This document shows, one piece after another, positions 2,127 through 27,891 of a stretch of 29,047 bases of DNA. How positions within the stretch are numbered: the first letter of the stretch is position 1; each line of letters opens with the position of its first letter. The notes beneath the pieces are model-generated. The model had not been told where the DNA came from and did no database searches. It saw only the letters and a program-made list of their open reading frames with translations. Source of the DNA: a virus. The stretch is from positions 1-29,047 of IMG/VR virus record IMGVR_UViG_3300036846_001176; one strand, 5' to 3'. The position numbers and the translations under genes are program-made.

Positions 2127-2186
2127 GCCTTTCCGCCGGAGTACAGCCGGCTTCTCTGCCGGTCACCCGTCATGGGGCCGGGAGGC
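2127..2186 (-). promoter_or_regulatory. RBS-sequestering three-way-junction leader, copy 1 of 18
   Basis: Hairpin-GGCAGAGA-GCCGG(CUGUACU)CCGGC-GGAAAGGC immediately before ATG 2119. Confidence 0.75.
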
Positions 2187-2223
2187 ATTGTCAAAGGTAG
2201 GGAAATCTGGCACAGCGGTGTGT

Positions 2224-2323
2224 GCCAAGGCGAGGCTGGGCAACGCCCGGCAAGGCACGGCATGGCGAGGCTTGACCTGGCAGGCCCGGCTGCCGCCTCT
2301 CGGATCTGCCTCCGAGAGGCGGC
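2224..2323 (+). ncRNA. GGC-NN guide-like small RNA A (1 unit, 11 NN)
   Basis: Pentamer array 2224-2278, then GGCA-GGCCCGGC, then perfect hairpin 2292-2323; TTGTCA at 2188. Confidence 0.8.
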
Positions 2324-2343
2324 TCTGCCCGCAAGTCGCTCTT

Positions 2344-2373
2344 TATATGGTGATTTTGCCGCCGCGTTTTCAG
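2344..2373 (-). promoter_or_regulatory. leftward promoter-like motif (AAAATCACCATATA)
   Basis: Related motif recurs at 11304, 24220, 26930 and 28253. Confidence 0.5.
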
Positions 2374-2636
2374 TCGGCGACGGCAGGGTTTTCCTGATCC
2401 GGCACTGCCACGCTGGGCTTGCGGCAGGCCACGCAGCGCCGCGCGTGCGGGCGCTTCCAGCAGTGTCCGGTGACCACCGTGAACTGGCTGTGGCAATCCG
2501 GGCAGACGCTACGCCAGTCGATGCAGGTGACCAGTTTGCCCTCGACGTTGGTGAACTGGCGCACCCCGATCGGCCAGTAGCGCTGGCCTTGGTGCAGGAC
2601 GTGAAACCCCTGGGGGAACCCGGTTCCTCCGCTCAT
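2370..2636 (-). CDS. small zinc-ribbon protein
   Basis: CPDC...CVAC. Confidence 0.65.
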   Translation of the reverse strand: MSGGTGFPQGFHVLHQGQRYWPIGVRQFTNVEGKLVTCIDWRSVCPDCHSQFTVVTGHCWKRPHARRCVACRKPSVAVPDQENPAVAD

Positions 2637-2980
2637 GGCATATCCTCCGGATCGAATGCGTCACGCCGGCGCCGGCGCCACTCGCCCAGGGTGTGGGCGA
2701 ACTGCTCGCGGAGCTCGAAGTCGTGCGGCTGGAACTGAATGCGCCGGTAGAGCGTGTTCAGTTCGCGGATGGTAGGGTTCAGCGGGTGGTCACGCCCCCA
2801 GGCGACCTCGTTGGGACGGAGGCCGACATCGGCGTGGGTGACCTCGTGCTGGCGCCACATGCCGCAGTGATAGTTGGGATGGACGGTGCGCGACTGCCTG
2901 GCGCACCAGCCGGCGGCGCGCCGCTCGGACGGGCTGGCGGCGCGGGTGCGGCGGAAGTTCGTGCAGTCCATGCAGGGCAT
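2633..2980 (-). CDS. hypothetical Cys-containing protein
   Basis: MPCMDC...WC...HC; translationally coupled. Confidence 0.6.
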   Translation of the reverse strand: MPCMDCTNFRRTRAASPSERRAAGWCARQSRTVHPNYHCGMWRQHEVTHADVGLRPNEVAWGRDHPLNPTIRELNTLYRRIQFQPHDFELREQFAHTLGEWRRRRRDAFDPEDMP

Positions 2981-3159
2981 CAGGGCGGCTCCTGTGCCTC
3001 GGCCAGCAGCCGGCGCGCGAGGTCGCAGAGCACCTTGTTGGTGGCGTCGGTCTCGCCGGTCAGCATGACCCACTCGTTGCGATCGGTGCCGGTCCACATG
3101 CCGCCGCGATGCAGCAGCAGGACGGCGCGGGCGAGGCGCTCGAGGGGCGTCAGCCTCAT
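2980..3159 (-). CDS. hypothetical protein (MRLTPLER...)
   Basis: Coupled start and stop on both sides. Confidence 0.6.
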   Translation of the reverse strand: MRLTPLERLARAVLLLHRGGMWTGTDRNEWVMLTGETDATNKVLCDLARRLLAEAQEPP

Positions 3160-3545
3160 CGCCGGCCCGGCTCGGCTATGTCGCGCTGGCGCTTGTCGGC
3201 GTGGATGGTGCGCCAGACGTCGACCTTCTGCTGGGCGGCGGCGCGCTTGGCCTTGAGTTCCTCGGCCAGCACCTGGGCGTCGTACTGTTCCTCGACCGCC
3301 TTGGCGAAGGCATTCGAGATGCGCGCCTCGGCCTGCCGGCGGGCGTCGCTCTTCTGCGTGCTGACCATCACGCCGGCCGCCTCGATCATCCTGAGCCGGT
3401 AGGCGGCGCGATCGGCGGCGGCGATCGCCACGGCATAGTCGTGCGCGATATGGTCGGCGAACTGCATCGCCTCGTAGCACTCCTCGTCGGTGACGAGGTC
3501 GGTGATCGGCTCGACGTCCCGGTAGCGGGGGGAGCGGGCGCTCAC
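3156..3545 (-). CDS. helical protein, possibly a UvsY-like recombination mediator
   Basis: Coiled-coil character with C-terminal VDVWRT..ADKR; near ssb and the ERF gene (family call is inference). Confidence 0.5.
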   Translation of the reverse strand: MSARSPRYRDVEPITDLVTDEECYEAMQFADHIAHDYAVAIAAADRAAYRLRMIEAAGVMVSTQKSDARRQAEARISNAFAKAVEEQYDAQVLAEELKAKRAAAQQKVDVWRTIHADKRQRDIAEPGRR

Positions 3546-3763
3546 GGGTCACCCTTCTGCAGGGCGCGCTCGTTCCAGCCCATCGCCCATGACAGGCGCT
3601 CGATGGTCGGCGTGCCGGCGGGGCCGTGGGGGTTCTCGTGGAACCCCTGGCGGCCACGGTGGGCGATGACGCCGTCCGCGAAGGCGTCGAGGTCGAGGTC
3701 GCGGACGGTCATCTCGCCCTTCTTGTTGAGCGCCTGATGGAAGGCGTCCTCGCTCTCGGTCAT
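3542..3763 (-). CDS. hypothetical protein
   Basis: ORF within the operon, GTGA coupling. Confidence 0.6.
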   Translation of the reverse strand: MTESEDAFHQALNKKGEMTVRDLDLDAFADGVIAHRGRQGFHENPHGPAGTPTIERLSWAMGWNERALQKGDP

Positions 3764-3791
3764 CGAGGGAACTCCGATAGTGGTCGCGGCA

Positions 3792-4043
3792 TCAGACGGT
3801 ACCCCCGCCCCACTCGCGGCCTGCCGCCAGTTCCTCGCGCAACCGCTCGATCGCCACCGAATAGACTTCCCCGGCGCGCATGACGTAGCGGCGTTCGCCG
3901 GTGTCAGGGTGCTCGAACTCCCAGAGCATGCCGGGCCGCGGCTCGCAGATCGTGAAGCCGAGCCGCTGCATCACCGAGAGGAACACCTGCTCGGCCATGG
4001 CGCCGCGGCGGGCCGCGCGGGCTGACGATGACATCATTGCCAT
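3792..4043 (-). CDS. hypothetical protein
   Basis: ORF directly downstream of ssb; start uncertain. Confidence 0.55.
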   Translation of the reverse strand: MAMMSSSARAARRGAMAEQVFLSVMQRLGFTICEPRPGMLWEFEHPDTGERRYVMRAGEVYSVAIERLREELAAGREWGGGTV

Positions 4044-4048
4044 ACCCG

Positions 4049-4684
4049 TCAGAACGGGATTTCGTCGTCAAGGTCCGCTGCGGCCTGCCGTGGGTTGCCC
4101 CAGGAGGGGCCTCTGCCGGTGCCATCGCCGGCAATGCTGCCCCCGCGAGGCTCGTCGCGGCCGGCACCGTTGGTCTCGCGCGGTGGAGCAGCGCGGCGGT
4201 CATCGCCCCGGCCACGGTCGCGGCCACGGTCGTCATCGCGGCCCCGGTCCCGGCCGCGGTCATCGCTGCGACCCCTGTCACGCCCTCGGTCGTCGTCGCG
4301 GCCACGGTCGCGGCCCCGATCGTCGCGGCCGTCGTCGCCGCGCGCGTCGAGCATCTGCAACTCGCCCCGGAAGCGCTGCAGCACGACCTCGGTCGTGTAG
4401 CGGTCAGCGCCGTCGCGGTCGGTCCACTTGCGGGTCTGCAGCGCGCCCTCGACGTAAACCTTGCTGCCCTTGCGCAGGTACTTTTCGGCGACGCCGCCGA
4501 GGTTCTCGTTCCAGATCACCACGTTATGCCACTCGGTGCGCTCCTGGCGGTCGCCTGAGCGATCCTTCCAGGTCTCGCTGGTGGCGAGGCGGAAGCTCAC
4601 CACCTTGTCGCCGTTGTTGGTCGAACGGACTTCCGGATCGGCGCCGAGGTTGCCAACGAGCGTCACCTTGTTGATGCCGGCCAT
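4049..4684 (-). CDS. ssb: single-stranded DNA-binding protein
   Basis: MAGINKVTLVGNLGADPE...TEWHNVV...KGSKVYVEG...; acidic tail LDDEIPF. Confidence 0.97.
   Translation of the reverse strand: MAGINKVTLVGNLGADPEVRSTNNGDKVVSFRLATSETWKDRSGDRQERTEWHNVVIWNENLGGVAEKYLRKGSKVYVEGALQTRKWTDRDGADRYTTEVVLQRFRGELQMLDARGDDGRDDRGRDRGRDDDRGRDRGRSDDRGRDRGRDDDRGRDRGRGDDRRAAPPRETNGAGRDEPRGGSIAGDGTGRGPSWGNPRQAAADLDDEIPF
4199..4325 (-). repeat. 30-bp coding tandem repeat (DDRGRDRGRx x4) in the SSB linker
   Basis: Visible in both DNA and translation. Confidence 0.85.
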
Positions 4685-4695
4685 GACGTTTCCTT

Positions 4696-5541
4696 TCAGG
4701 AGTTGAGCGAGGGGGGCTGGATCTGCCAGCGGCCTTCATAGGCGTCGGCCAGCCAGTGGTAAGTCGTGTCGCTGCACTGTCTGAGCATCGCGGCCTCATC
4801 GCGCCACAGCTTGTCGGCCTCGTCGCGGGTGTAGGCGCTGCTCATGCGCTCGGCGAAGGCGCGCACGCGGTCCTGGAAGTTGCCGGGGTTCTCGGGTGGC
4901 GCCCCGGGGTCGCGCGACGGCGGCTCGCCGGGCGGTGGGAACTCGCCATCGTCTGGTGGCGCGGCCTCGCGCGAGGGCATGTCGCCCGGGAAGTCGCTGG
5001 GCGGCGGGGGTGCCGATGGTGGGCGCATGTCGTCCGACGTGTCGTGGCCGTTGCCGCGCGGGGGTGGCTCGCGCACGTCCTCATCGCGTTCGATATCGTC
5101 AACGTCTGCGGGGATCTTGAAGAGTGCGATCTCGAATTGCTTCAATGCGGCCGTGAGGGTCTTATTCATTGCCTTATCGTCATAAGAACCTGCCCTGAAC
5201 TGGAACCGGCAGGAACCGGTGATAGAGCCGATGTTGAACACCGCTTCGCCATCGCAATGAGCGTCAAACTCGTACTTCACGAACAAAATGCCACCGAGCA
5301 CCGAGCGGGCCACCTCACGCGGCGACAGCACCAGCCGGTGCTTGATCATCGCATCCTGGATCTTTGCGGTGAGCACCGTCGCTTCGACGTAGTCGTACCT
5401 GTGCTCCTTGTTGCGGCCGGTCTTGGGGATCTTTGGGATGTCATGCATCACGCCGACAATCGCGGCGAAAACCTTGGGCGCACCCTCAGGTGGCATGAAG
5501 ACCGGCATACGGACGACGGCGGTTTCGGTCGTAACGCTCAT
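4696..5541 (-). CDS. ERF-family single-strand annealing protein
   Basis: IPKTGRNKEHRYDYV...DDKAMNKTLTAALK...LFKIP, Pro-rich linker, adjacent to ssb. Confidence 0.8.
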   Translation of the reverse strand: MSVTTETAVVRMPVFMPPEGAPKVFAAIVGVMHDIPKIPKTGRNKEHRYDYVEATVLTAKIQDAMIKHRLVLSPREVARSVLGGILFVKYEFDAHCDGEAVFNIGSITGSCRFQFRAGSYDDKAMNKTLTAALKQFEIALFKIPADVDDIERDEDVREPPPRGNGHDTSDDMRPPSAPPPPSDFPGDMPSREAAPPDDGEFPPPGEPPSRDPGAPPENPGNFQDRVRAFAERMSSAYTRDEADKLWRDEAAMLRQCSDTTYHWLADAYEGRWQIQPPSLNS

Positions 5542-5908
5542 GACACACCCCCAAACGACAGAACGCCGCACCCGGACCTTACGATCCGAATGCGGCGCCC
5601 AGGAGACCTCGAAGCCAGCCAATTAGCCAAGCCAGCGGCCAGAGAGCAATGCACCCCAACAAGGCGTAAGCGGCGGCCTGAGTAATCGCCTCGCCCACCC
5701 CTTCGCTGATTGACATCTTCCCCGGCCGCCGTCGACGTCGACCGGGCATAGCTACCCTCCATGGTCTCACGACACATATGGGTGTGCCGAGTTTTCACGG
5801 CGAGTGGGCGCGGCAAAGAAAGCTGGGGATAACCCGGGAACGACATCTGCCGACCTCCGATCAGGTGGTATGATCCTATCCCGATTTTCCCATCCCAGGC
5901 AAGAGGGC

Positions 5909-5947
5909 AAAATAAAAACCCCCGGGGCGCGCGGCCTCGGGGGTTTC
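5909..5947 (-). terminator. intrinsic terminator
   Basis: AAACCCCCG...CGGGGGTTT stem followed by a T-run on the minus strand. Confidence 0.7.
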
Positions 5948-5948
5948 C

Positions 5949-6698
5949 TCATAGCTCCTGGCGGATGCGCCAGCGGGCAACGCCAGGCACCGGCTCAGGG
6001 GTCTTGCCGGCAAGCCGGAGATCCCAGCGATCCGCCACGAAGCGTGGGGTCAGCCAGTAACTGAATTGCCTCTGCCGCAGGCTGTCACCGTGAAACACGG
6101 TGGCAGGCAGGCCTAGCAGCACCGCCTGGAGATATGTCATGTGCACGGCCGCGATGTCGATGTCGACCGCGGTGATGTGCAGTTGCTTGTGAGGGTCGAA
6201 GCCGGCCTCCTCGAAGGCCTGCGCGAACGCAAGCATCATGCCGCCGGCGCCGCATGCGGGCTCCATAAACGAGATGTAGCCCTGTGCCTTGACTTGTTCG
6301 CCCAACTTGTCGCGCGGCGCCATCGCCAGTCGTGCCATCATGTACGAGACCTGAAACGGGGTGTAGAACTGGCCAAGCCGCCCTTTCATTGCGTTGCTGC
6401 CCAGTTCCATCCGGGACATCAAGGTATGCAAAGGGGCCTCTCCCTTCGTCAGGGCAAGCGCCAGCATGGCAGTCATACTCGCCATGTCAGTGATCTCGTC
6501 CTCGGTGTAGCGCTTGGCTACCTCGACGTAGCGCAGTTCGCGCTCGGCGTACTGCGCGCGATCGCAGGTGTTGGCGTGGGCGATGGCCGCCAGCTCAAGC
6601 CAGTCGTAGAAGACCTGGTCGATGCGGTGGCGGTGGTCGAACGACTTCAACGTGTGCGCCAGCTTCTCCAGAGGCTGGCGCGCAGCGGAGTGGATCAT
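5949..6698 (-). CDS. N6-adenine DNA methyltransferase-like protein
   Basis: GQFYTP and EPACGAGGM (motif I), AVDID; no NPPY motif IV. Confidence 0.8.
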   Translation of the reverse strand: MIHSAARQPLEKLAHTLKSFDHRHRIDQVFYDWLELAAIAHANTCDRAQYAERELRYVEVAKRYTEDEITDMASMTAMLALALTKGEAPLHTLMSRMELGSNAMKGRLGQFYTPFQVSYMMARLAMAPRDKLGEQVKAQGYISFMEPACGAGGMMLAFAQAFEEAGFDPHKQLHITAVDIDIAAVHMTYLQAVLLGLPATVFHGDSLRQRQFSYWLTPRFVADRWDLRLAGKTPEPVPGVARWRIRQEL

Positions 6699-6767
6699 TG
6701 TGATTGCCTCTTCTGCCCGGGCTTGATTACCCGGAGCCTCGGCTCCTCTGCGGAGCACGAGGTTCGG

Positions 6768-6980
6768 CTATTTCGGTTTGAGGCTACCCTTGACGGTATG
6801 CGAAACGGAAAACTCCGACAGCACCTCGAGTATGTCCTCGGCAGACGGCATGCGCCGCTGCTGGATCAGTGTGTTGAGCTCGCGTAAGGCGTCGGTGACT
6901 TCCAGCCGCTTGCGCAGCAGCAACTGCTCGAGCAGTTCGTGGAGCGCACGCGTCGTGGCAGACCTCTCAGGTTTCGTCAT
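6768..6980 (-). CDS. hypothetical protein
   Basis: Leader motif copy at 6987-7043. Confidence 0.7.
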   Translation of the reverse strand: MTKPERSATTRALHELLEQLLLRKRLEVTDALRELNTLIQQRRMPSAEDILEVLSEFSVSHTVKGSLKPK

Positions 6981-7048
6981 AGCCGTGCTTTCTCCCGGAA
7001 ACAGCCGGGTTCTCTGCCGACCATCACAGTGATGGCCGAAAGCCGGGG

Positions 7049-7291
7049 CTACTTGCGCAGCGCCCGGTGGATATGCCGCGCATAGACCGCCACCGATTTC
7101 CAGTAAGCGGCCATCGGCGCCTTGTTGCGGTACCAGGCCCGCACCGAGCGCTCCTGGGCGTCCTCGCTGATCTCCTTGAGGAGCTCGGCGATCGCCAGGC
7201 GGGCGGGCTCGGGCAGTGCCCGCACCTTGCGCAGCGCCGGCAGCGCCAGGATCGGGTTGCGGATCTCGGCGCGGTTGGAACGCTGTTCCAT
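7049..7291 (-). CDS. hypothetical phage protein (MEQRSNR...)
   Basis: Leader motif upstream; KAPMAAYWK. Confidence 0.75.
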   Translation of the reverse strand: MEQRSNRAEIRNPILALPALRKVRALPEPARLAIAELLKEISEDAQERSVRAWYRNKAPMAAYWKSVAVYARHIHRALRK

Positions 7292-7374
7292 CAGGGATCT
7301 TTCACCGGTGATCAGACCGGCTCTCTGCCGCTTGCGGTCAAGCGAGAGACGCCTGCGCTGTGCAGGCGTCCGGA

Positions 7375-7599
7375 TCACCATTGCCAGTTCGACGGCAGCA
7401 GCGCGTAAAGGGCGTCGCAGTGCTCCTCGAGCCGAGTGGCAAACGTTGTCTTGCCCTCTGCACGGAGGATCATTGCGCGGTGTTTGGTCACCGCGTAATC
7501 GCGCAGCGTGGTGGCGTGCCGGGCGAATTCTGCGAGGTCCTCGGGCATCATGCCGTCGAGGTTGGTATTGTCCAGATTGTAGGCGAATTCCTTTGGCAT
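7375..7599 (-). CDS. hypothetical phage protein
   Basis: Leader motif upstream. Confidence 0.75.
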   Translation of the reverse strand: MPKEFAYNLDNTNLDGMMPEDLAEFARHATTLRDYAVTKHRAMILRAEGKTTFATRLEEHCDALYALLPSNWQW

Positions 7600-7685
7600 A
7601 TATGGTGTTTCCTTGCGCCGGTATAAGCCGGCTCTCTGCCGCCCATCATGGGCGATAGGGCCCCGCCTTTCACGGGGCCGCGTGG

Positions 7686-8045
7686 TCAGTCATAGGCGAA
7701 CACGACGCCAAACGTGGTGAACGACGCGTAGGCGCAGGCCTGCACCTGAGAGCCGTCGTCGCGCCGCACGAACGCCCCGCAGTGATACGGGTTGTACGTC
7801 ACGGCGCGCCTGGTAAGGCCGTCGGGGATGACATCGACGATCTCGCCGATCGCCCAGGCATGCACCTCGCGCACCCCGTTGCGGACAACGCGGTCGCGGC
7901 CTGACTGAGACACGTGGAAGTGGACGCCGGCGAGCAGGACCAGGCGGCGATGGTCGATGACCAGGCCGTAGCTCCTGCCCGTCCGGCTGGGGATGGCGAT
8001 CGACCAGTCGCCGCGGTTCTTGTTGCGATAAATAGCAACCGCCAT
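7686..8045 (-). CDS. hypothetical phage protein
   Basis: YRN...WSI...GRDRV...VHAW...VTYNPY, a pattern I recognise from phage hypotheticals. Confidence 0.75.
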   Translation of the reverse strand: MAVAIYRNKNRGDWSIAIPSRTGRSYGLVIDHRRLVLLAGVHFHVSQSGRDRVVRNGVREVHAWAIGEIVDVIPDGLTRRAVTYNPYHCGAFVRRDDGSQVQACAYASFTTFGVVFAYD

Positions 8046-8053
8046 CGCCCTGG

Positions 8054-8278
8054 TCAGGGGGCAGGCGGCTTGCGTGGGTTGGGGCGCTCAATGGTTCGGT
8101 CGCGCGGCCTGTGGTTCAAGTCCGCAGTTTCCTCGCCGCGTTTAAAGCGACGGATTTTGGCGTCGATCTCGGCGCGGTTGGCGCGAATGAAGGCCTGCTT
8201 GCTTTGCCGGTGTTGTTTCCACCAGCGATACAGGCCCTCCTCATTGTCGATCCATTGGGCTCGGTCCGTGTCGTTCAC
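8054..8278 (-). CDS. hypothetical protein
   Basis: WIDNEEGLYRWW; leader motif upstream. Confidence 0.75.
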   Translation of the reverse strand: MNDTDRAQWIDNEEGLYRWWKQHRQSKQAFIRANRAEIDAKIRRFKRGEETADLNHRPRDRTIERPNPRKPPAP

Positions 8279-8341
8279 GGATGCCTCCTAGCGCCGGCAA
8301 TCAGGCCGGCTCTCTGCCGCCCTTTAATGGGCGGTAGGAGA

Positions 8342-8563: not shown

Positions 8564-8654
8564 GGCCTGGGGTGATGACGTGAGGCCATCCGGCCATGCA
8601 AGTGAAATCTGCTGCAAAAATTCCGCCTGTTTTGTCGTAGCAACGACGCGCCCC

Positions 8655-8978: not shown

Positions 8979-9077
8979 AGGGCCTCCCTTGCGCCGGTGA
9001 CAGCCGGCTCTCTGCCGCCCTGGCAGGGCGGTAGGGAGGGTCGCCCCACGGACGCTGTCCGCGGGGTCCCCAAGGGA

Positions 9078-9899: not shown

Positions 9900-9986
9900 C
9901 GTGTGTCTTTCTGCCCGAGACAGCGGGCTCTCTGCCGACCACCACAATGATGGCCGAAAGACACGGATTACTTGATTGAATGGAGT

Positions 9987-10083: not shown

Positions 10084-10125
10084 AAATGCAGTCTAGAGGC
10101 ATGGGCCGTAAAAGCAAGGCCGGCA

Positions 10126-15556: not shown

Positions 15557-16972
15557 ATGTCCGACCGTTCAGACCGAGGCCGCAGCCCCACCGCGCAAGC
15601 CGCCCTCGCCCCCGAAGTCTCGCCCGACGGCGCCCGCATCAACACCCCCACGGGCTGGCTCATCGATGCCGACGGCAATCGGTTCTCCTTGGTCCGCACC
15701 GCCGACAAAGGCATGCAGATCCGCATCAACGCGTTCGTGGATCAGATCACGCAGTACGTCCTCGCCCTGCAGATGCAGGACGGCACCTGCTACCAGGAAA
15801 CCTCGACCTCCGGCTGGTACGTCTACGGCGGCGCGCCAGGCAACTGGACCAGCAGCCCTGCACCCCCCGGCAGTGGCGCTGGGGGTGGCGGCGGTGGTGG
15901 CGGCGGTGGCCCCACCCCGCCAGTCTCCGGCGGCCTCACCGTGCGCAATGGCCGTGTCGTCGACGACAAGGGCAACGACGTGCACCTGCGTGGGCCAAAT
16001 CTCAGGTTCATGAATTGGCCGGACAACCAGAACTCGGTGATGATGCATCCGATCGCCGATCGGCAGCGTTGCCTGCCGGTGCTCGACACCCTGCCCGGCA
16101 TGAACGTCGTCAGGTTCGATGCCTTCGAAAGTATGACCCAGTTCGACGCCGCATCGCCGCAGAACATCATTCCCTACATCGATGCCATCGTGAACAACGG
16201 CGTGTTCTGCGAGGTCGAGTGCCACATCTATCCCACCCTGCTGCAGGGCGGCGACCTCGAGCGCGTCTGCGGCTGGTACTCGCAACTCGCCCGCCACTAC
16301 AAAGACAATCCGAAAGTCATCTGGGGCACGCAGAATGAACCCGGCGGCGGGCCGGATGGTGAAATCAACCGGATCTACGATGCTATCCGAAACGAGGGCA
16401 ATCAGAATTTGATCCTGATGTGCCCGGAAGGCGGATGGTCGTGGTCGAACATGAACCCGGTCAACTACCAGCGCCTGCGCAATGTCGCTTGGGATTTCCA
16501 CTACTACGGCTGGATCCCCAACTATTCCATGGACCCCGCCGTCAACGATCAGGTCCTGCTCGACAACTACAACGGCTCGCTGCGCTTCCAGTCGGCCGAC
16601 GGCAACATCCCGATGTTCGTCGGCGAATTCAGTCCATGCGGCTTCCAGAACTCGAACGCGATTTTCGTGGAAAACGCCTTCTGGATGGACCCCAACGGCC
16701 TCTTGGTCATCGATAGCGTCTACCGCGCGCCGTTCCTCTCGGGTTGGATGCAATGGTTCTGGAATACCCCGGAGACCTCGGCCAGCAACGGGATCGGATT
16801 TTTGCTGAAACCGGATGGCAATTACAACGGCAGCGCCGTTACCGATCACGGCGGCAAGCAGATGGTCGAAGCGCTCCGCCGCGGCTCGCCGGCGGCCGCC
16901 TCGGCTAGCGCCCAAAGCGACGCCAGCGCCGCCGCCGTCGATCAGCGCCAGACCCAGACCAGGGGCCGCTAA
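15557..16972 (+). CDS. glycoside hydrolase family 5-like protein
   Basis: LTVRNGRVVD..G..VHLRGPN, GMNVVR, NEP (acid/base), FHYY, FVGEF (nucleophile); N-terminal domain plus Gly/Pro linker. Confidence 0.85.
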   Translation: MSDRSDRGRSPTAQAALAPEVSPDGARINTPTGWLIDADGNRFSLVRTADKGMQIRINAFVDQITQYVLALQMQDGTCYQETSTSGWYVYGGAPGNWTSSPAPPGSGAGGGGGGGGGGPTPPVSGGLTVRNGRVVDDKGNDVHLRGPNLRFMNWPDNQNSVMMHPIADRQRCLPVLDTLPGMNVVRFDAFESMTQFDAASPQNIIPYIDAIVNNGVFCEVECHIYPTLLQGGDLERVCGWYSQLARHYKDNPKVIWGTQNEPGGGPDGEINRIYDAIRNEGNQNLILMCPEGGWSWSNMNPVNYQRLRNVAWDFHYYGWIPNYSMDPAVNDQVLLDNYNGSLRFQSADGNIPMFVGEFSPCGFQNSNAIFVENAFWMDPNGLLVIDSVYRAPFLSGWMQWFWNTPETSASNGIGFLLKPDGNYNGSAVTDHGGKQMVEALRRGSPAAASASAQSDASAAAVDQRQTQTRGR

Positions 16973-17690: not shown

Positions 17691-17694
17691 GCCC

Positions 17695-18176: not shown

Positions 18177-18182
18177 CCACCC

Positions 18183-20034: not shown

Positions 20035-20054
20035 AAACGCTGCACATATTGTTG

Positions 20055-20584
20055 TGCTAGGCTCGTCTAGGCATGTCCTGGCTCGGCAAGGCGTGGCAGG
20101 GCAGGCAGCGCACGGCGGGGCTTGGCCCGGCAACGCAGGGCTCGGCATGGCAGGCACGGCTAGGCTCGGCATGTCAGGGCGCGCCTAGGCATGGCGGGGC
20201 AGGCGGGGCTGGGCTCGGCGAGGCACGTCGCGGCGAGGCTGGGCTCGGCAGGCACGGTTAGGCTTGCCACGGCCAGCCGCGGCACGGCACGGCAGGCTAG
20301 GCTCGGCAACGCGAGGCGCGACGAGGCGCGGCATGGCAGGCGAGGCTTGGCGTGGCTAGGCGCGACAGGGCCCGGCACGGCAGGCTAGGCGCGCCAAGGC
20401 AAGGCAGGGCGCGGCGTGCCCAGGCTCGGCTAGGCAAGGCAGGCGCGCCCTGGCACGGCAAGGCGCGGCGCGCCCAGGCTCGGCTAGGCAGGCAAGGCTT
20501 GGCCTGGCACGACGGGGCTGGGCGCGGCATGGCAGGGCACGGCCGGCACAGCGTTTCGGCAACGGTTCACCGGTCCGGAAACGC
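20055..20584 (+). ncRNA. long GGC-NN guide-like array (10 units)
   Basis: Pentamers punctuated by GGCA at 20100, 20149, 20198, 20247, 20291, 20335, 20379, 20438, 20487 and GGCC at 20541; TTGACG at 20020; 3' hairpin containing ACGGTTCACCGG. Confidence 0.9.
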
Positions 20585-21337: not shown

Positions 21338-21367
21338 CATCAAGTGTATTCCGTAACAAAAATGCGG

Positions 21368-21964
21368 CTACAGCTCTGCAAAGTGCTGTACCGATTGCTC
21401 GGGATGGCCGAATGGGTTGAACACCATTCGCACCCCGAGCGGCTCGGCGAGGAATTCAAACGTCGCCGAGCCCGGCATGTGCCGGAGGTCGTGCAGGTTG
21501 AGAAACGCAAGGGTCAGCTTGCGCGCCATGTGCAGCAGGTCCCCCGTGGTCACACGTGGCAGCCGATCGGGTTCGTCTGCCGTCATCGGATCGTCCTGGG
21601 GCTCAACGAGCCCGGAGGACAGTGCATGTCTGCTTGTCCAGTTGGCGCCCCATGGGCGCGGCTGGAACGAAATGGTGGCAGCGCCGGCGTCGCGGAATGT
21701 GACGATCGCGCGCTGGCTGTCGGCTACGCGGGCAAATGCCGCGAGGATGGCTAGGCCGAGGTCAATCGCCTCGGTGTAGGCTTTGGGCTTTGGCTTCGCT
21801 TTGCGGAGCCGGTCGTAGTGCATCGGCATGCGGAGGGCGAGCAGTGCTCGCTCATGTGCCGCCCACAGCGCGTTCATGGGCCGGTTCGTCACCGGCAGTG
21901 CGTTGTGGAACTGCTTGGTCTCCTGCAATGCATCAACGATGCGCTCGACATGAGGGTTTGGCAT
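21368..21964 (-). CDS. hypothetical protein
   Basis: Leader motif upstream of MPNPHV. Confidence 0.65.
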   Translation of the reverse strand: MPNPHVERIVDALQETKQFHNALPVTNRPMNALWAAHERALLALRMPMHYDRLRKAKPKPKAYTEAIDLGLAILAAFARVADSQRAIVTFRDAGAATISFQPRPWGANWTSRHALSSGLVEPQDDPMTADEPDRLPRVTTGDLLHMARKLTLAFLNLHDLRHMPGSATFEFLAEPLGVRMVFNPFGHPEQSVQHFAEL

Positions 21965-22030
21965 GGATCTGCCTTTCGCGCCCAATGGCAGGGGCGTTCT
22001 CTGCCCCACGCCATTATGACGTGGGAAAGG

Positions 22031-22474
22031 TCAGGGTCGTTTTTCGGTCCAGGTCTTGAACTCGCGGAGCTGCTCGGGATCGAGCCAGTCCCAGCGTCCC
22101 TCGAAGCGGATCGCGCGGTCGTCGATCGTCAGGAAGGCGGGAGGTTTCTGGTTGGTAAACTCCAGGAGAATGAGATCTGCCCGGCGTGCGTGCAGCAGCC
22201 GCAGGAACGGTGAAGCTTCGCTCGGAAAATCGGTAATTTGCCAGCCTTCCTGGAAGGCGTGTCCACCGATCCAGACTGCCATTTCTTTGATGCTGTCCGG
22301 GTCTTTCGAGCGTGAGCTGTAAACGACCAGGCGGAAGTGCTTGCCGGCCTTGTGGGCCCAATCGAGAAACCCTGGCGTCACGGTGCCGTAGAGCTCGCCG
22401 TTCTGCCAGCCTCGCTCATAGCTGTGGATTACGCCATCAAAGTCGAGACAGATGACCGGACGATCGCTTGGCAT
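22031..22474 (-). CDS. HAD-superfamily phosphatase-like protein
   Basis: ICLDFDGVIH, YSSR, KPPA..TIDDRA. Confidence 0.85.
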   Translation of the reverse strand: MPSDRPVICLDFDGVIHSYERGWQNGELYGTVTPGFLDWAHKAGKHFRLVVYSSRSKDPDSIKEMAVWIGGHAFQEGWQITDFPSEASPFLRLLHARRADLILLEFTNQKPPAFLTIDDRAIRFEGRWDWLDPEQLREFKTWTEKRP

Positions 22475-22527
22475 GGCGTGGCCTTTCGTGCCGTTGACGG
22501 ACGATGAAAACACTGCACATTATCTTG

Positions 22528-22682
22528 GACCAGGCTCGGCATGGCAAGTTCCGGCTCGGCGTGGCAGGGAGTGGCCCGGCTAGGCACGGCAGGCGTGGCG
22601 GGGCCTGGCTCGTCCGGGCAAGGCACGGCGTGGCGCGGCCGGCACGGCAAGCCCCGCGGCAACGGTTCACCGGCCGCGGGGC
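22528..22682 (+). ncRNA. GGC-NN guide-like small RNA C (2 units, 12 + 9 NN)
   Basis: TTGACG at 22494; GGCA at 22588; GGCC at 22637; hairpin 22651-22682 with ACGGTTCACCGG. Confidence 0.85.
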
Positions 22683-22689
22683 ACCTCCC

Positions 22690-22899
22690 TTAGAACGCTA
22701 GCAGCAGCAACTGCTCGGCGCCGTACACGGAACGTTGGCCACACGCCTCGCACTTGTAGCGCTCGGCATCCGGTTCACAACCTTCCGCGTCGGCGCCGCA
22801 ATCGATGCAAAAACCTGGATTGTCCAGGTCCAGCAAACCTTGCTCAGCCGCCTGCTGGACGCGTTCCTGGGTCAGGCTCGGGTGGAGTTTCAGTGCCAT
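22690..22899 (-). CDS. small zinc-ribbon protein
   Basis: GFCIDCG...EPDA..YKCEACG...VYGAE. Confidence 0.8.
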   Translation of the reverse strand: MALKLHPSLTQERVQQAAEQGLLDLDNPGFCIDCGADAEGCEPDAERYKCEACGQRSVYGAEQLLLLAF

Positions 22900-23002
22900 G
22901 TGGTGGCCTTTCGCCGGAGTACAGCCGGCTCTCTGCCGTGCTGCGTTGGTGCAGCACGAAAGGCGGGTTGACAGCTTTCGTAAATATAGAACATGATGAT
23001 GT

Positions 23003-23105
23003 GTCCTCGCCTGGCGAGGCAAGGCCTGTCCGGGCCAGACGCGGCGCGACTTGGCACGGCGCGGCAGGCTTGAGGAACCCCGCAGCTGTAGCCGCGGGGT
23101 TCTTC
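23003..23105 (+). ncRNA. GGC-NN guide-like small RNA D (1 unit, 12 NN)
   Basis: TTGACA-18-CATGAT (22968-22997), array, GGCA at 23063, hairpin 23072-23105. Confidence 0.85.
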
Positions 23106-23115
23106 GTTTGCGCGG

Positions 23116-23583
23116 TCAGCCGTGAAACGCTGCGTGGCGCAATTTTTCTAACAGACCTTCGGCGATTTGCGCTGTCAGCGCGGGGCATTCGCTGGTGGTC
23201 GCGTTCATGAGCAGCTTGGCCAGGACCTTGGCCTCGACCTCGGTGACCGGGAGCATGGTCGTGAGGTAGACTGGCGGCTCGATGGTGACCTGGCCGGCGA
23301 ACAAATAGTCCTCGGCGCCTGCATCTTCAGGCTTCATGCCTGATGCGTTGTCGAAGCAGTTTTCCAACACGCAATCAGCGGCCTCCGCCAACTCAGGCGA
23401 GAGCTCGATCGAGAGCGGCCAGGTGGCCGTGTCGGTCGCGTTGCCGATCAGTGTCTGGAGGTCATCGAGGTGCAGGGCGCGGTCGGCTTCTCCGTTGTCC
23501 GCCGCGACCTCGCTCATGCCTTCGGCCATGGAGCAGAACACCTTTGCGGCGCGAAGATCGGCGATCGTTAAGCTGTGGCTCAT
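23116..23583 (-). CDS. hypothetical protein (MSHSLT...)
   Basis: ATGA coupling with 23580-23774. Confidence 0.75.
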   Translation of the reverse strand: MSHSLTIADLRAAKVFCSMAEGMSEVAADNGEADRALHLDDLQTLIGNATDTATWPLSIELSPELAEAADCVLENCFDNASGMKPEDAGAEDYLFAGQVTIEPPVYLTTMLPVTEVEAKVLAKLLMNATTSECPALTAQIAEGLLEKLRHAAFHG

Positions 23584-23774
23584 GAGCAGTAGCCTTCGGC
23601 TACGAGCTCGATCACGACGGCGCGCCCGTCTGGGATACGCCGTTCGTGTGCTGATAGGCACTGTTCGAGCGCCTCGATGGCATCGAGGGCTCCGCTGGCT
23701 GCGTCATCTGCTGGACAACCAGGCTTAGGATGACAGAATTGCAGCAGCGTTCTGAGTGCGGTTTGGGGATCCAT
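23580..23774 (-). CDS. hypothetical protein (MDPQTAL...)
   Basis: Leader motif at 23781-23838. Confidence 0.7.
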   Translation of the reverse strand: MDPQTALRTLLQFCHPKPGCPADDAASGALDAIEALEQCLSAHERRIPDGRAVVIELVAEGYCS

Positions 23775-23780
23775 GTGGAT

Positions 23781-23838
23781 GCCTTTCGCCGGAGACAGCC
23801 GGCTCTCTGCCGTGGCGCGTTGGTGCGACACGAAAGGC
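23781..23838 (-). promoter_or_regulatory. RBS-sequestering leader, clearest copy
   Basis: GCCUUUC-[GUGUCGCACCAACGCGCCAC]-GGCAGAGA-[GCCGGCUGUCUCCGGC]-GAAAGGC-N6-AUG. Confidence 0.85.
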
Positions 23839-23840
23839 AC

Positions 23841-23887
23841 AAACGAAAAGCCCCGCCTCGCAGAGGCGAGAACGGGGCTGAGTTTCG
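23841..23887 (-). terminator. intrinsic terminator-like hairpin
   Basis: AGCCCCG...CGGGGCT followed by TTTCGTTT. Confidence 0.6.
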
Positions 23888-23897
23888 TGTTTGACGG

Positions 23898-24122
23898 CTA
23901 GTGGGGCGGGGGTTCGCCGCGTGCCCAGCTAGCCAGCAAGGCGTAATGCGCAGCTCGGGCGGCTGCGATGATCCTTGGGTTTTCGGTGTGACCGGCGGCT
24001 CCGACGCGCGCCTTCGAGCTGCGGATCTTTTGACCCCAGCCCTTGAACTGCTTGTCGTAGTGACGGTCGTAGGCGGCGATCACGTCCCAAGGGCGACGTG
24101 TGTAGCCTCTAGCTCTTGGCAT
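23898..24122 (-). CDS. hypothetical protein
   Basis: AGGAG RBS; promoter motif at 24220. Confidence 0.6.
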   Translation of the reverse strand: MPRARGYTRRPWDVIAAYDRHYDKQFKGWGQKIRSSKARVGAAGHTENPRIIAAARAAHYALLASWARGEPPPH

Positions 24123-24309
24123 TATTATCTCCTGTGTGGCGGGGCATATTGATTATCTCCCTCGCCGTACCGCGGTATCAGCCGCGGCTCTCATGCACCC
24201 GGATGGGTTGCACATAGCATATATGGTAATAACTGAACACATTGCAATATACGCAATAAACCGACACCAGAAAAGCCGAAAACCCCCTGGGGCACAGGGG
24301 GTCTTGGGG

Positions 24310-24609
24310 TTAGTAACAAACGTAATGTCCCCACCGGTTCCAGTAGCAATACTCGGGGGTGGAGGCAGCGCTGGCGGCAGCTGCGCCGACCAGGAGGACG
24401 CCGAGGGCGATGCCACCGATCGTCTTGGCGACGTTCGAGTTGGCTTCGTCCTGGTTGATTTTCTCTTGGATGGGCACAAGCTGGCAGGCTTGTTGGTTGC
24501 CGATGCCACAGGCGGTGCGGAGTTGTCCGAGCCGTTGGATGTTGGCTTCGCTCGCGCAGCCGGCGAGCATGGCAAGCACCAGCGCGAGGCTGATGGTTTT
24601 CTTAAACAT
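24310..24609 (-). CDS. putative lipoprotein
   Basis: MFKK + hydrophobic stretch + LAGC lipobox; second hydrophobic segment. Confidence 0.8.
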   Translation of the reverse strand: MFKKTISLALVLAMLAGCASEANIQRLGQLRTACGIGNQQACQLVPIQEKINQDEANSNVAKTIGGIALGVLLVGAAAASAASTPEYCYWNRWGHYVCY

Positions 24610-24708
24610 GTGGAATGCTTTCTACGCCCAAACAGGGACGCTCTCTGCCCCGTTGGATGTTCGGGGAAGTTAATTGACGATGATGGAAAATGGCACATAC
24701 AATGCTGT

Positions 24709-24792
24709 GCTATGGCATGGCTTGGCAACGCCGGCCATGGCACGGCAGGGCAGGCATGGCATCCCGCGGCGACGGTTCACCGGCCGCGGGGT
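24709..24792 (+). ncRNA. GGC-NN guide-like small RNA E (1 unit, 7-8 NN)
   Basis: TTGACG-18-TACAAT (24674-24703); GGCA at 24749; hairpin with ACGGTTCACCGG. Confidence 0.8.
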
Positions 24793-24863
24793 CACTCTGT
24801 GCTTTCACGCCCGAACAGGGGCGTTCTCTGCCCTCCGGCGTTGGTGCTGGAGGAAAGCCACCC

Positions 24864-25067
24864 TTAACGGGTGGTCGTCTTGCTTGGCGGGAACAGGTCC
24901 GGCCTGGCAGCGGCCAGGTCGCGGAGTGCCCGCACGATTGCGTTGCCAACGCGGACCGAGGGGACTTCGAGGTCAAACATTCCGTCGTAACCGGAGCACT
25001 TGACGCGGTAGCCCGTCGGCCTGATGCCGATGAGGCTGATCAGGTTGGCGATTTCGCGCTTGTTCAT
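24864..25067 (-). CDS. hypothetical protein
   Basis: ATGA coupling. Confidence 0.6.
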   Translation of the reverse strand: MNKREIANLISLIGIRPTGYRVKCSGYDGMFDLEVPSVRVGNAIVRALRDLAAARPDLFPPSKTTTR

Positions 25068-25378
25068 TTGCGCGCCTTGAGGATTTCTTGGACGTTGGCG
25101 TCCAGGTCGTCCATGACCTTTTGTGTTGCCGCCCGCAAGTCCGTTTTGAACTTGTCGAGGAAGGCTTGGTCGATGTGGAATGGGTTCTTGGGTTCGTCAA
25201 CGATCTCGTTGACGTCGGTCGCCTCATCGTAAGTGGCGACCAGGTGCTTCTGCATGAACTCGTGATCCTCAGTGAATTCTTCGAGGGTCTCGCGTGCAGA
25301 GGCGGTGACGAGGTCTGGCGCGTCTATGGTGAAGACGTGCACATGGACGGTGTTAACCGTGACCTTGAACTTTGGCAT
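25064..25378 (-). CDS. hypothetical protein
   Basis: Leader motif upstream. Confidence 0.75.
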   Translation of the reverse strand: MPKFKVTVNTVHVHVFTIDAPDLVTASARETLEEFTEDHEFMQKHLVATYDEATDVNEIVDEPKNPFHIDQAFLDKFKTDLRAATQKVMDDLDANVQEILKARK

Positions 25379-25443
25379 TGTGTAGCCTTTCGCATCCTAT
25401 CAGGGATGCACTCTGCCGGATCGGTGATCCGAAAGGCGCCCGC

Positions 25444-25629
25444 TCAATGAACGGGCTGCTCGTAAAACCATTTACCGGTTTGTCCCGAGCTGAGGGTGAA
25501 TACACCGGAGCGCTGGTTGTTGTTGATCTGCGCCTCGATGGTGGCTCGCATTTCTGCGATCTCCTCGACATCCTCGCCATCGACAGTGTCGACTTCGATG
25601 ATGATGGATAGAGGGTGAGTTTCGTGCAT
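25444..25629 (-). CDS. small acidic hypothetical protein
   Basis: Leader variant upstream. Confidence 0.65.
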   Translation of the reverse strand: MHETHPLSIIIEVDTVDGEDVEEIAEMRATIEAQINNNQRSGVFTLSSGQTGKWFYEQPVH

Positions 25630-25704
25630 GGTTGGTGCCTTTCGCATCCATGAGTAGGGATGCTTTCTACCCGCCAGCGTTGGTGCTGGCGGAAAGGCGC
25701 CCGC

Positions 25705-25932
25705 TTATTCAGCGGGCCGTAGTTTGCGATCCTCCGTTTCGATCACATTGGCCATAAGCCGGTTGGCTTCGGCCACCCCGGCATTCCACGCGTCCTGTCG
25801 CGTTGGATGCAGGCCAGGCATGTAATGGCCGATGGCTCGGGTGCGGGGATTGCTTAATGAAACAACAACGATGAAGCCTTCGCCGCGCCGCTCGACGCGG
25901 ATCGTGGCAACCAGGCTGTCGGTATCGCTCAT
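25705..25932 (-). CDS. hypothetical protein
   Basis: Leader motif upstream. Confidence 0.7.
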   Translation of the reverse strand: MSDTDSLVATIRVERRGEGFIVVVSLSNPRTRAIGHYMPGLHPTRQDAWNAGVAEANRLMANVIETEDRKLRPAE

Positions 25933-26005
25933 GGTGTTTCCTTTCACGACCAGACAGGGTCGCTCTCTGCCACGCAGCGTTGGTGCTGCGTGAAAGGCGC
26001 CCGCG

Positions 26006-26245
26006 CTAGGCGGGCTGGTCGTCGGTAAATTCGGCCTCCCAGCTTGACGCGGCGAGATAGGACAGACGTGCCCCCGCAATCGCGAGGTCTCTGTTGGCCA
26101 TCTTCGTCGAGAAAAGAATGATGTGACCGGTATCGTGGTCGACTATGCAAATGACGACGCCGGCGTTTGTCGGCACCTCCGCGACGGCGCTCTCAAGCAG
26201 ATGCTTGGGGCTCGTCCATTTGCCGCGGATGGGTTCAACACTCAT
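26006..26245 (-). CDS. hypothetical protein
   Basis: Leader motif upstream. Confidence 0.7.
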   Translation of the reverse strand: MSVEPIRGKWTSPKHLLESAVAEVPTNAGVVICIVDHDTGHIILFSTKMANRDLAIAGARLSYLAASSWEAEFTDDQPA

Positions 26246-26477
26246 AGTGTTTCCTTTCACGACCAGACAGGGTCGATCTCTGCCCCTCAGCGTTGATGCG
26301 AGGGATAGGCGCCACGCCCGTTTCAGTCCGCTGTGCGGAGTACTTCGGTGCGTGGCACTTGCTACATGTAATAATCAGCGACCAAGCAACCGGCGATGAG
26401 CACCCAGGCCCACCACGGAAAACTTAGCGCGGTTGCGAAGAAGACCATCTGGTCCTCCTTTCGCTTGAGGTGAAATG

Positions 26478-26518
26478 ACAAACGCCCCAACCCCTTCTTA
26501 TTCAGGGTTGGGGCGTTC
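26478..26518. terminator. hairpin, possible bidirectional terminator
   Basis: AACGCCCCAACCC...GGGTTGGGGCGTT. Confidence 0.65.
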
Positions 26519-26523
26519 GTGTG

Positions 26524-26841
26524 TTACGCAGCTGCTGCGGCAGGGTGCTCGGAGTTGGCCTGTGAGGCACGCTGTGCGTCCCGGGCCTTCTTGAACTCCT
26601 CGAACTCACGCTTTTCGGCGTCCTGATCGGCAGCAGCTTCCCGCCAAGTGCGGCGGACGTAGTCGGTGGTCGACGAAGTCGCATTCGAGACGAGACCGAC
26701 GAGCTTGACCGCACCGTAAACGGTGCCGCCAATCACGACGGCGCCGGCCACCCAAGTGGTGGCGCGGCCAACGTCCTTAAGACCTTGCTCGAACCCCCAG
26801 CTAGCAGCGCTGCTGACGGTCGAAGTGACGTAATCGAACAT
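26524..26841 (-). CDS. putative membrane protein
   Basis: One hydrophobic segment; GAAAGGA RBS. Confidence 0.7.
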   Translation of the reverse strand: MFDYVTSTVSSAASWGFEQGLKDVGRATTWVAGAVVIGGTVYGAVKLVGLVSNATSSTTDYVRRTWREAAADQDAEKREFEEFKKARDAQRASQANSEHPAAAAA

Positions 26842-27039
26842 TTGGTAGTCCTTTCTGATTTCGCCGGATTGATGGAGCCCGGCATGTCTCCCTCACCGAT
26901 CTGGCATTTTGCCTCGGTGAGATATCAGATATATAGGGATTTGTAACGAAATTACAATGGTTTATGCAACGAAACGTTGCATTTTCAATGATTTATGCCT
27001 CGCCGGCCCTGCTTATGCTGCAGAGCCGGTTACGGGCGT

Positions 27040-27447
27040 TCAGTGCCCGTTCGACGCGTGATAAAGGTTGCGCAGTGCGCAGCGCAGCCGAAAACGCTGT
27101 TCTGCAGGCACAGCCTCGTTGAGGGTGAGGTTGATGGCGCTGCGGAATGCGTCTCTCCTGGTTCGCAGGAATTCGATGATGTCCACGGGGAAATCATCCT
27201 CGGCCAGCAGGGCGCACAGCACAGTGTCATTGCGTGCGTTGCGCGCTTTCCGCGTCGAGCGGATGTTGTTGATAACCGCGCGACCTTCCTCCTGCGCCAG
27301 CTGGTAGCCGGCGGTGATCACGATGGCTGCTCCGACAATTCCGGCGGCTTTCGCCATATTGCCGAGCGTCGGTGCCATCGCTGACCTTGAGGAGCTGTAA
27401 AGCCCGCTCGAAGGGTGTCGCAACGTATCCTGCATGGTAAAGCTCAT
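27040..27447 (-). CDS. hypothetical protein
   Basis: Leader motif upstream. Confidence 0.65.
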   Translation of the reverse strand: MSFTMQDTLRHPSSGLYSSSRSAMAPTLGNMAKAAGIVGAAIVITAGYQLAQEEGRAVINNIRSTRKARNARNDTVLCALLAEDDFPVDIIEFLRTRRDAFRSAINLTLNEAVPAEQRFRLRCALRNLYHASNGH

Positions 27448-27562
27448 TGAGCTTTCCTTCCTTTCACCGGAGACAGCCGGTTCTCTGCCGTGCCGCGGGG
27501 ATCGCGACACGAAAGGATGTGGGGTTGGTTGAATGGGCCTCGGCCTGGACCGAGGCCACCAT

Positions 27563-27769
27563 TCAATATCGATAGCACCACCCATCATGGCCGGATTGAA
27601 AGCCATGAGGGCATGATGTGTAGTTTTGTGGCCTGCTCTGATCTTGCTGGCGGGCGGCGTTGTGCATTTCCATCTGGGTGATCATCAGCGCGAAAAACGC
27701 GATGACCGCTATCGATGGAAGGCCGACGACCACCATCAGAACGATCTGCAGTGGTGAAAACTTGCGCAT
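27563..27769 (-). CDS. small membrane-anchored protein
   Basis: N-terminal hydrophobic helix; leader variant upstream. Confidence 0.65.
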   Translation of the reverse strand: MRKFSPLQIVLMVVVGLPSIAVIAFFALMITQMEMHNAARQQDQSRPQNYTSCPHGFQSGHDGWCYRY

Positions 27770-27891
27770 GTGAGTGCCTTTCACGCCCATGATGGGCGCT
27801 TTCTACCCGGTCAGCGGGATGCTGCCGGAAAGGCATTGGGGTGCGAGACGGTCCAGACGTACTGGACCGCTCGATGGGATGCCGGACGCCC

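Follow-up and report, generated by a model that had tools for sequence, protein, structure and literature searches.

What are the RNA structures that stand ahead of one small leftward gene after another in IMG/VR virus record IMGVR_UViG_3300036846_001176, and what might they do to the messages that carry them? The stretch analysed, the window, is 29,047 nt long and is the first 29 kb of that 104,559-nt record (G000 below). The original prediction had seen in it eighteen copies of a three-way junction whose long basal stem, P1, sequesters the ribosome-binding site. A conserved structured RNA is indeed present. However, the junction geometry given for it was wrong and the likeness to a ribozyme was missed: the scaffold is that of a type III hammerhead, with an altered catalytic core. 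The best explanation, to which a probability of about 0.55 is given, is that these elements are regulated self-cleaving RNAs that would split early transcripts and free the Shine-Dalgarno sequence of the gene that follows.

In a 120-row covariance-model alignment the order of parts (numbering as in the portion available of PMC11300833) is stem III, closed by A15.1-U16.1, an unpaired H17, stem I, a core of 6–7 nt, stem II and G12-A13-A14. Stems I and II are closed by loops and stem III is open, which is the type III arrangement. All three stems covary, with 93% of cells paired, a level reached by none of 500 shuffles, and with slid controls at 31–46%. The A15.1-U16.1 position is U-A in every one of the 120 rows. 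The 1.1-2.1 pair is U-G, C-G or U-A in all of them, and this is an independent count, the same pair having been constrained by the parser in the larger set used below. Arm I is 14 to 45 nt long and its loop is often ACC, GCC or AUCC.

The model was trained on 73 parsed copies, ten of 83 parsed candidates having been discarded by eye as chance, and gave 127 matches in 71 chosen loci. The larger set, of 124 distinct copies, is made up of 113 matches of at least 30 bits and 21 hand-picked divergent copies (three of them from the 14 weaker matches), minus one that was not parsed and nine duplicates. It derives from four related phages of ~100 kb (G000 to G003), two contigs of Alphaproteobacteria metagenome-assembled genomes (MAGs; G004 and G005) and metagenome contigs. 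As the copies are related to each other, counts are of sequences and not of independent events. Early search patterns imposed a pyrimidine at 1.1 and the exclusion of G at H17, and the model was trained on the resulting copies. G5 and G12 were imposed by the parser, and both are visible in the model alignment. H17 is U in 87 copies, C in 22, A in 15 and G in none, and it is also never G in 61 copies from four wholly scanned phage records, counts that are partly circular since the early patterns excluded G. The sequence after stem II is GAAA in 118 copies, GCAA in five and GCUA in one; A9 is present in 123 of the 124.

The commonest core, CAGAGA (92 of 124), corresponds to CUGANGA in which A replaces U4 and position 7 is lacking. 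N3 and N8 are C-G in 107 copies, G-C in 12, U-A in three and mismatched in two, so that 122 of 124 have a Watson-Crick pair; U3-A8 is present in natural active hammerheads according to the available part of PMC3088659. Twenty copies have 7-nt cores, including CAGAUGA and CAGACGA in G001, CAGUCGA, CUGUUGA in the MAGs and GAGUUCA, and several of the 7-nt copies have GUC or AUA triplets. One copy, in phage G003, has the canonical CUGACGA core on the same scaffold and is placed ahead of a start codon like the others. A descriptor agnostic to the core (N3, N4, N8 and loop II free) gave 21 non-CAGAGA matches with GAAA (among them a CAGAGA copy that was parsed wrongly and a doubtful match at genome position 39114); the N3-N8 pair is present in 20 and the loop pairing described below in 17. 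On one shuffle of the same DNA it gave four matches in all. Since the intermediate cores bridge CAGAGA to canonical CUGACGA, the elements very probably descend from ordinary hammerheads. The seven-nucleotide CUGANGA turn was tested as the mark of family membership and is fully canonical in one of 124 copies, that in G003, and in none of the 20 in the window; for this reason the elements are not filed as type III hammerheads, though the scaffold fits and a similar way of working is likely.

A second feature, overlooked in the original prediction, is a conserved CUG that opens loop II. It is there in 89 of the 102 copies whose core starts with CAG, and no search pattern required it. The loop tracks changes in the core, with UAG opposite CUA, GAG opposite CUC, CGG opposite CCG, GCG opposite CGC and, in the canonical copy, CUG opposite CAG. 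Core bases 3–5 form three of three pairs with the first bases of loop II in 113 of 124 copies. N4 and its partner are A-U in 103, G-C in three, U-A in three, C-G in three and G-U in one; N3 and its loop partner are C-G in 99, G-C in 12 and U-A in two. Twenty of 22 copies with a non-CAG core have their own Watson-Crick loop partner, compared with 7.1 for permuted cores (0 of 5000), but these 22 were partly hand-picked and the core-agnostic count (17 of 21) is the fairer figure. N3 therefore covaries with two partners of the same identity, N8 and the loop II base. Along the strand the core is followed by 3 nt, stem II, the partner and then mostly 2–5 nt. This order of core, stem II and loop partner is compatible with an H-type pseudoknot. 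In the active hammerhead, as given in the available text of PMC11300833, C3 is paired to G8 and there is a sharp turn of the strand between U4 and G5, because of which the two pairings of N3 should be mutually exclusive; a single fold with both together was rejected on this geometric reasoning. With a pseudoknot that would exclude the catalytic fold the RNA is likely two-state, and we infer two folds, both under selection.

In one of these, fold A, N3 would pair with N8 and the RNA would be cut after the NUH triplet. In fold B core bases 3–5 would pair with loop II and the core would be locked. Cutting would release the 5′ strand of stem III, held by 3–4 bp, with consequent freeing of the AAGG Shine-Dalgarno, and the products would be mRNAs for single genes, structured at the 5′ end, and an upstream message with a hairpin at its end. 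The pseudoknot would either delay cleavage or form in the product and block religation. A bolder proposal, tentative and put at slightly under an even chance, is that the hammerheads of one natural lineage came to lock themselves through pairing of loop II with the catalytic turn. Each phage genome would then carry up to 20 copies of the resulting two-state regulator, whose commonest, six-nucleotide form may gate translation with or without cutting. If so, the copies would record the stepwise change of a ribozyme into a switch. Hammerhead clusters are known to cut polycistronic prophage messages, and examples from Agrobacterium and Azorhizobium have been tested (PMC3088659, in the part available); what ribozyme clusters are for in phages is described as an open question in the accessible text of PMC6765202.

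All window copies are within the first 28.3 kb of the record and on the - strand, which is the mRNA strand, and they stand ahead of start codons, as had been predicted. For each of the 20 the start codon is 7–19 nt after GAAA, and in 86 of the 124 copies it is 8–12 nt after it. The ribosome-binding site is partly paired, which also agrees with the original prediction. AGG follows GNN in only 13 of the 20 window copies, and over the full set the AGG of the Shine-Dalgarno makes up the 3′ side of stem III in 93 of 124. When the 5′ strand was removed, predicted unpairing of the Shine-Dalgarno bases rose in 17 of the 20, the median going from 0.30 to 0.56 in a model without pseudoknots. A hairpin of -10 kcal/mol or lower ends just upstream of 70 of 123 copies (32 of 123 when shuffled; 31 of 119 downstream windows). 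Such hairpins would fit a need for a protected 3′ end on the upstream product, and could also be pause or weak terminator hairpins. An upstream stop codon is within 10 nt of U16.1 in 8 of the 20.

All eighteen copies of the original prediction are present where it had placed them: its 16 CTCTGCC positions are exact, the TTCTACC variants are at 25665 and 27801, and the P3 stem sequences that it quoted are all there. The total is nevertheless at least 20, two copies (26855–26928 and 28153–28234) having been overlooked. A covariance-model scan of the 104,559-nt record recovered 18 copies, all from its own training set, with no other match below E 0.65; the two additional ones were exposed by the core-agnostic descriptor, both are G3-C8 and both have orthologous element-gene pairs in G003. 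The CTCTGCC heptamer has 22 matches in the window, 21 of them on the + strand, where 6.6 ± 2.6 are expected by chance and none of 100 shuffles is as high. The sequence shared by the copies near 25940 and 26253, put earlier at about 30 bp, exists and extends over 59 nt at 92% identity, at 25928 and 26241. The copies are as follows (loop, loop II partner; ORF, open reading frame).

Element 1, 28153..28234, - strand: triplet AUA, 7-nt core GAGUUCA (G3-C8), loop CUC; predicted cut 28229/28228; leads an 81-aa ORF, 27892–28137; orthologous element and gene in G003 (L298:11326-11406), 40% protein identity.
Element 2, 27775..27835, - strand: core UAGAAA (U3-A8), no loop partner; predicted cut 27830/27829.
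Element 3, 27458..27518, - strand: core CAGAGA, loop CUG; predicted cut 27513/27512; leads a 135-aa ORF common to G001, G002, G003 and G005.
Element 4, 26855..26928, - strand: triplet AUA, core GAGACA (G3-C8), loop CUC; predicted cut 26923/26922; leads a 105-aa ORF, 26524–26841; orthologous element and gene in G003 (L298:12536) and G001 (L288:522).
Element 5, 26251..26311, - strand: triplet CUA, core CAGAGA, loop CUG; predicted cut 26306/26305.
Element 6, 25938..25999, - strand: core CAGAGA, loop CUG; predicted cut 25994/25993; hairpin immediately upstream.
Element 7, 25636..25699, - strand: core UAGAAA, loop CUA (U3 covarying with both A8 and the loop); predicted cut 25694/25693.
Element 8, 25384..25438, - strand: core CAGAGU (A9U), loop CUG; predicted cut 25433/25432.
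Element 9, 24799..24860, - strand: core CAGAGA, loop CUG; predicted cut 24855/24854; then a 41-aa ORF with a GUG start, which runs over a pentamer-repeat tract (gene doubtful).
Element 10, 24615..24672, - strand: core CAGAGA, loop CUG, short stem III; predicted cut 24667/24666.
Element 11, 23780..23839, - strand: core CAGAGA, loop CUG; predicted cut 23834/23833.
Element 12, 22905..22965, - strand: core CAGAGA, loop CUG; predicted cut 22960/22959.
Element 13, 21970..22032, - strand: core CAGAGA, loop CUG; predicted cut 22027/22026; leads a 198-aa ORF common to G001–G003.
Element 14, 9904..9963, - strand: core CAGAGA, loop CUG; predicted cut 9958/9957; leads a 273-aa ORF common to G001–G003 and G005.
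Element 15, 8985..9037, - strand: triplet CUA, core CAGAGA, GCAA replacing GAAA; predicted cut 9032/9031.
Element 16, 8285..8340, - strand: triplet CUA, core CAGAGA, GCUA replacing GAAA; predicted cut 8335/8334.
Element 17, 7609..7661, - strand: triplet CUA, core CAGAGA, GCAA, loop CUU (incomplete partner); predicted cut 7656/7655.
Element 18, 7296..7351, - strand: triplet CUC, core CAGAGA, loop CUG; predicted cut 7346/7345.
Element 19, 6985..7045, - strand: core CAGAGA, loop CUG; predicted cut 7040/7039.
Element 20, 2126..2187, - strand: triplet CUC, core CAGAGA, loop CUG; predicted cut 2182/2181; core of the G003 orthologue CAGUGA.

Beyond the window, at 39060–39165 (-) of the record, the descriptor has a match with a GUC triplet, a GAGUUCA core, GAAAC and long irregular arms, which may be chance.

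Several observations count against self-cleavage by these RNAs. U4 is retained in three of 124 copies, position 7 is absent in 104 and A6 is U in 15. In mutational scanning of a type III hammerhead, mutants with one or two changes in the CUGA turn were all of low activity except a C-G swap, the sole rescue (PMC9901934, as far as its text is available), and in the crystal structure U7 is stacked on C3 (PMC11300833, likewise). Where a 7-nt copy has A6U, the U contributes a fourth pseudoknot pair in 10 of 11 cases, which suggests selection on the pseudoknot at the catalytic turn's expense. A13 or A14 is altered in six copies, eleven copies are without the full pseudoknot, and to these are added the partial circularity of the H17 and 1.1 counts and the choice of 21 divergent copies by hand. 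A conserved contact between loops I and II was not found, there being no complementarity spotted by eye and arm length being very variable. A nearest-neighbour model favours the long P1, in which UUUC is paired with GAAA and the RNA would be inactive, in 7 of the 20 window copies.

The U4 and A6 changes cripple ordinary hammerheads, and the main and serious rival is for that reason a translational switch that is derived from a hammerhead and does not cut, a possible reading at well below even odds. The junction fold would shut stem III over the Shine-Dalgarno (off) and the pseudoknot fold would strain the 3–4 bp stem III open (on), with the balance tipped by a protein, by Mg2+ or temperature, or by a ribosome as it completes the gene upstream. 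Loss of U4 from 121 copies and of position 7 from 104 would be expected of it, as would retention of the pseudoknot in 113 with four Watson-Crick pair types at N4, and the nearby upstream stop codons (8 of 20) and 8–12 nt start-codon spacing (86 of 124) also suit it. It sits poorly, however, with the preservation of G12, A15.1-U16.1, a non-G H17, A9 and N3-N8, all catalytic in hammerheads, and with the one fully canonical copy. Moreover, several 7-nt copies have no nearby start codon and so cannot be translational switches. The hammerhead core is regarded as nearly invariant. If cutting takes place, a core of six nucleotides can be active without U4, a whole family escapes consensus searches and the core-loop pairing serves as a natural means of control; if not, this is a rare reuse of a ribozyme scaffold as a translational switch, with natural intermediates available.

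The model of the original prediction, a junction unrelated to ribozymes whose long P1 conceals the ribosome-binding site until a single factor of phage or host opens it, is now improbable. Besides being the preferred predicted fold in the seven window copies just mentioned, a long P1 is fully paired in 50 of 124, and its outer pairs are kept. The inner pairing of CCUUUC with GAAAGG is, in contrast, not conserved, and neither is a P1 of 6–7 bp: its three inner pairs are all formed in just 11 of the 20 window copies and in the same 50 of 124 overall, and column 6-121 lacks a pair in 25 of 119 rows, column 7-120 in 46 of 120. The Y-C of CCUUUC pairs instead with the GG of GGCAGAG, column 7-49 being paired in 120 of 120 rows, never broken, where column 7-120 is paired in 74. 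The N3-N8 covariation, the loop II pairing and the canonical copy are also left unexplained by it. A regulon governed by one trans-acting factor, which the original prediction inferred, may or may not exist. More improbable still is a site acting as DNA, for single-strand recombination or as a homology patch, which shuffles gene cassettes. It could draw on the two strands folding with about equal energy (minus better in 10 of 20), on inner-stem G-U against A-C counts (18 to 12) that are not decisive for strand, on some blastn segments common with G003 that stop inside elements and on the 8 of 20 window genes for which no homologue was detected in G003 (for a further one the homologue has no element that was detected). 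But U-G at 1.1-2.1, found in 60 of 124 copies, is a mismatch on the opposite strand, spacing to start codons is fixed, and hammerhead-specific covariation has no DNA rationale. In addition, 11 of 11 element-led genes shared with G003 are collinear, which leaves the gene shuffling suggested earlier without support. In G002 some homologues sit where the covariance model found no element. Gain and loss of cassettes and elements is possible and would fit, which reordering does not, and homology between copies may, as a side-effect, aid it.

The original prediction recognised no named RNA family, and a search of Rfam bears this out: there is no match at gathering score in the window, in 11–17 kb of G003 L298 or in nine further loci, and none to RF00008 in the window or, at E ≤ 10, in the whole record. 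The search is insensitive, as the canonical-core copy of G003 was missed too, and its silence says little. The + strand UUUCUACC has what we take to be a resemblance to a purine riboswitch; this identity was rejected, the resemblance being on the non-coding strand and Rfam giving no match. If they self-cleave, the elements would work like the RNase III sites between T7 early genes, repeated structures that split the early polycistron ahead of each gene, though those are single hairpins cut by a host enzyme and have no hammerhead core.

A pseudoknot-containing hammerhead, reportedly due to Weinberg et al. in 2015, also combines a hammerhead core with a pseudoknot. In it, according to the part of PMC11300833 available, the pseudoknot replaces helix II and pairs with an extra stem-loop, and the CUGAUGA turn is intact and active; the present elements have a covarying helix II, and their pseudoknot uses core bases 3–5. 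The pistol ribozyme, treated in the same text, has a related junction and a shorter C/AGA turn that still cuts, so that a shortened core is not impossible, but its fold is different: it has an A-minor strand and no N3-N8 pair, and a 6-bp pseudoknot stands in place of helix II, where the elements keep both the pair and the helix. Identity with pistol was rejected, as N3-N8 covaries and there is no Rfam pistol match. The type III hammerheads clustered around prophage and phage genes (RF00008; Perreault et al. 2011, PMC3088659, from its available portion) are alike in topology, NUH site, A15.1-U16.1, G5, N3-N8, A9 and G12-A13-A14; they too occur in several copies between small phage genes, and one published phage variant is 13 nt ahead of a start codon. 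The elements differ from them in the replacement of U4, the usual deletion of position 7, A6U in 7-nt forms, the pairing of core 3–5 with loop II, the up to 20 copies per genome and the location of the Shine-Dalgarno inside stem III. These core changes are not among the variants in that portion, and five core strings are absent from its 11 text supplements (the figure images being unsearchable). No description of the six-nucleotide core or of loop II-core pairing was found in the full-text literature covered, which excludes most subscription journals and Weinberg et al. 2015; both features are probably novel.

Pattern scans found multiple copies in three further IMG/VR phages of 91–103 kb, which share the terminase at 60–88%, at least about 25 short metagenome contigs with elements among the matches listed, and two Alphaproteobacteria MAG contigs among 64 genome matches. 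By covariance model the copies number 18 in G000, 14 in G001, 6 in G002, 16 in G003, 2 in G004 and 6 in G005. The MAG regions, L303 (G005 contig 41, 20–40 kb) and L305 (G004 contig 8), are from two related MAGs and have elements on both strands and integrase-like and KilA-N genes. Two element-led genes are common with the phage (37% and 47% identity) and none of 17 phage markers tested was found in the stretches examined; the region may belong to a satellite or an integrative element. When 55 candidates were scored in each of 101 genomes around G005, G004 and G005 alone had matches, and a loose pattern on two MAGs matched no more commonly than its reversed control. Among viral contigs the helicase had no relatives and G003 was the sole terminase match. 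Patterns for a canonical core with a CAG loop and for GAGUUCA (matches checked by script) and for A at 2.1 (matches judged by contig name and match count) led to no newly recognised phage. A type I/II hammerhead descriptor gave no match, a relaxed descriptor was too noisy (912 matches compared with 626 in shuffled DNA), and a MAFFT alignment of the divergent copies was too poor for a second covariance model.

Two copies, L183:473-545 (-) and L082:322-396 (+), have a perfect hairpin starting TTGACA inserted in arm II, with the loop partner weakened or missing; the insert is possibly an operator or promoter. Contig L135, which bears three elements of the present kind, has in addition at 1672–1733 (-) a weak Rfam type II hammerhead match of 26 bits (cut-off 37), with a canonical CUGACGA core ahead of a start codon and a cleavage-site region that looks irregular.

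The record encodes terminase, portal and tail proteins, and its first bases recur at 104,380. In the window the elements lie within two leftward blocks of small, mostly unannotated genes, and between these blocks are a primase gene and a helicase-like gene that point rightward. No element stands in front of the SSB, Erf-like and methyltransferase genes of the window. Terminase identity to cultured phages is at most about 35–37%, and the 273-aa element-led protein had no match among these phages. From weak terminase matches to Rhizobium phages and the copies in two Alphaproteobacteria MAG contigs, we infer an alphaproteobacterial host.

Other features of the window are a protein of 471 aa that carries a glycoside hydrolase family 5 (cellulase) domain (15557–16972, +; E 3e-16) in the phage replication region, and tandem 6/12/18-nt repeats within the SSB gene (4193–4342, -) coding for an Arg-Asp-rich linker. 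A HAD-family protein (22031–22474, -) has a weak match, 24.8 bits and below the 27.5 cut-off, to the RNA-repair HAD model PF18143, and would be of interest if the elements generate cyclic-phosphate ends. GGC-phased pentamer repeat tracts are present at 20049–20546, 22537–22657 and 24718–24770 (+) and at genome position 30029 (-), with shorter ones at window positions 2223–2289 and 23012–23068. Four tracts of the record terminate in a hairpin carrying the conserved motif RACGGTTCACCG (20561, 22661, 24771 and 30029 (-)), and two tracts with the RACGGTTCACCG hairpin are also present in phage G003.

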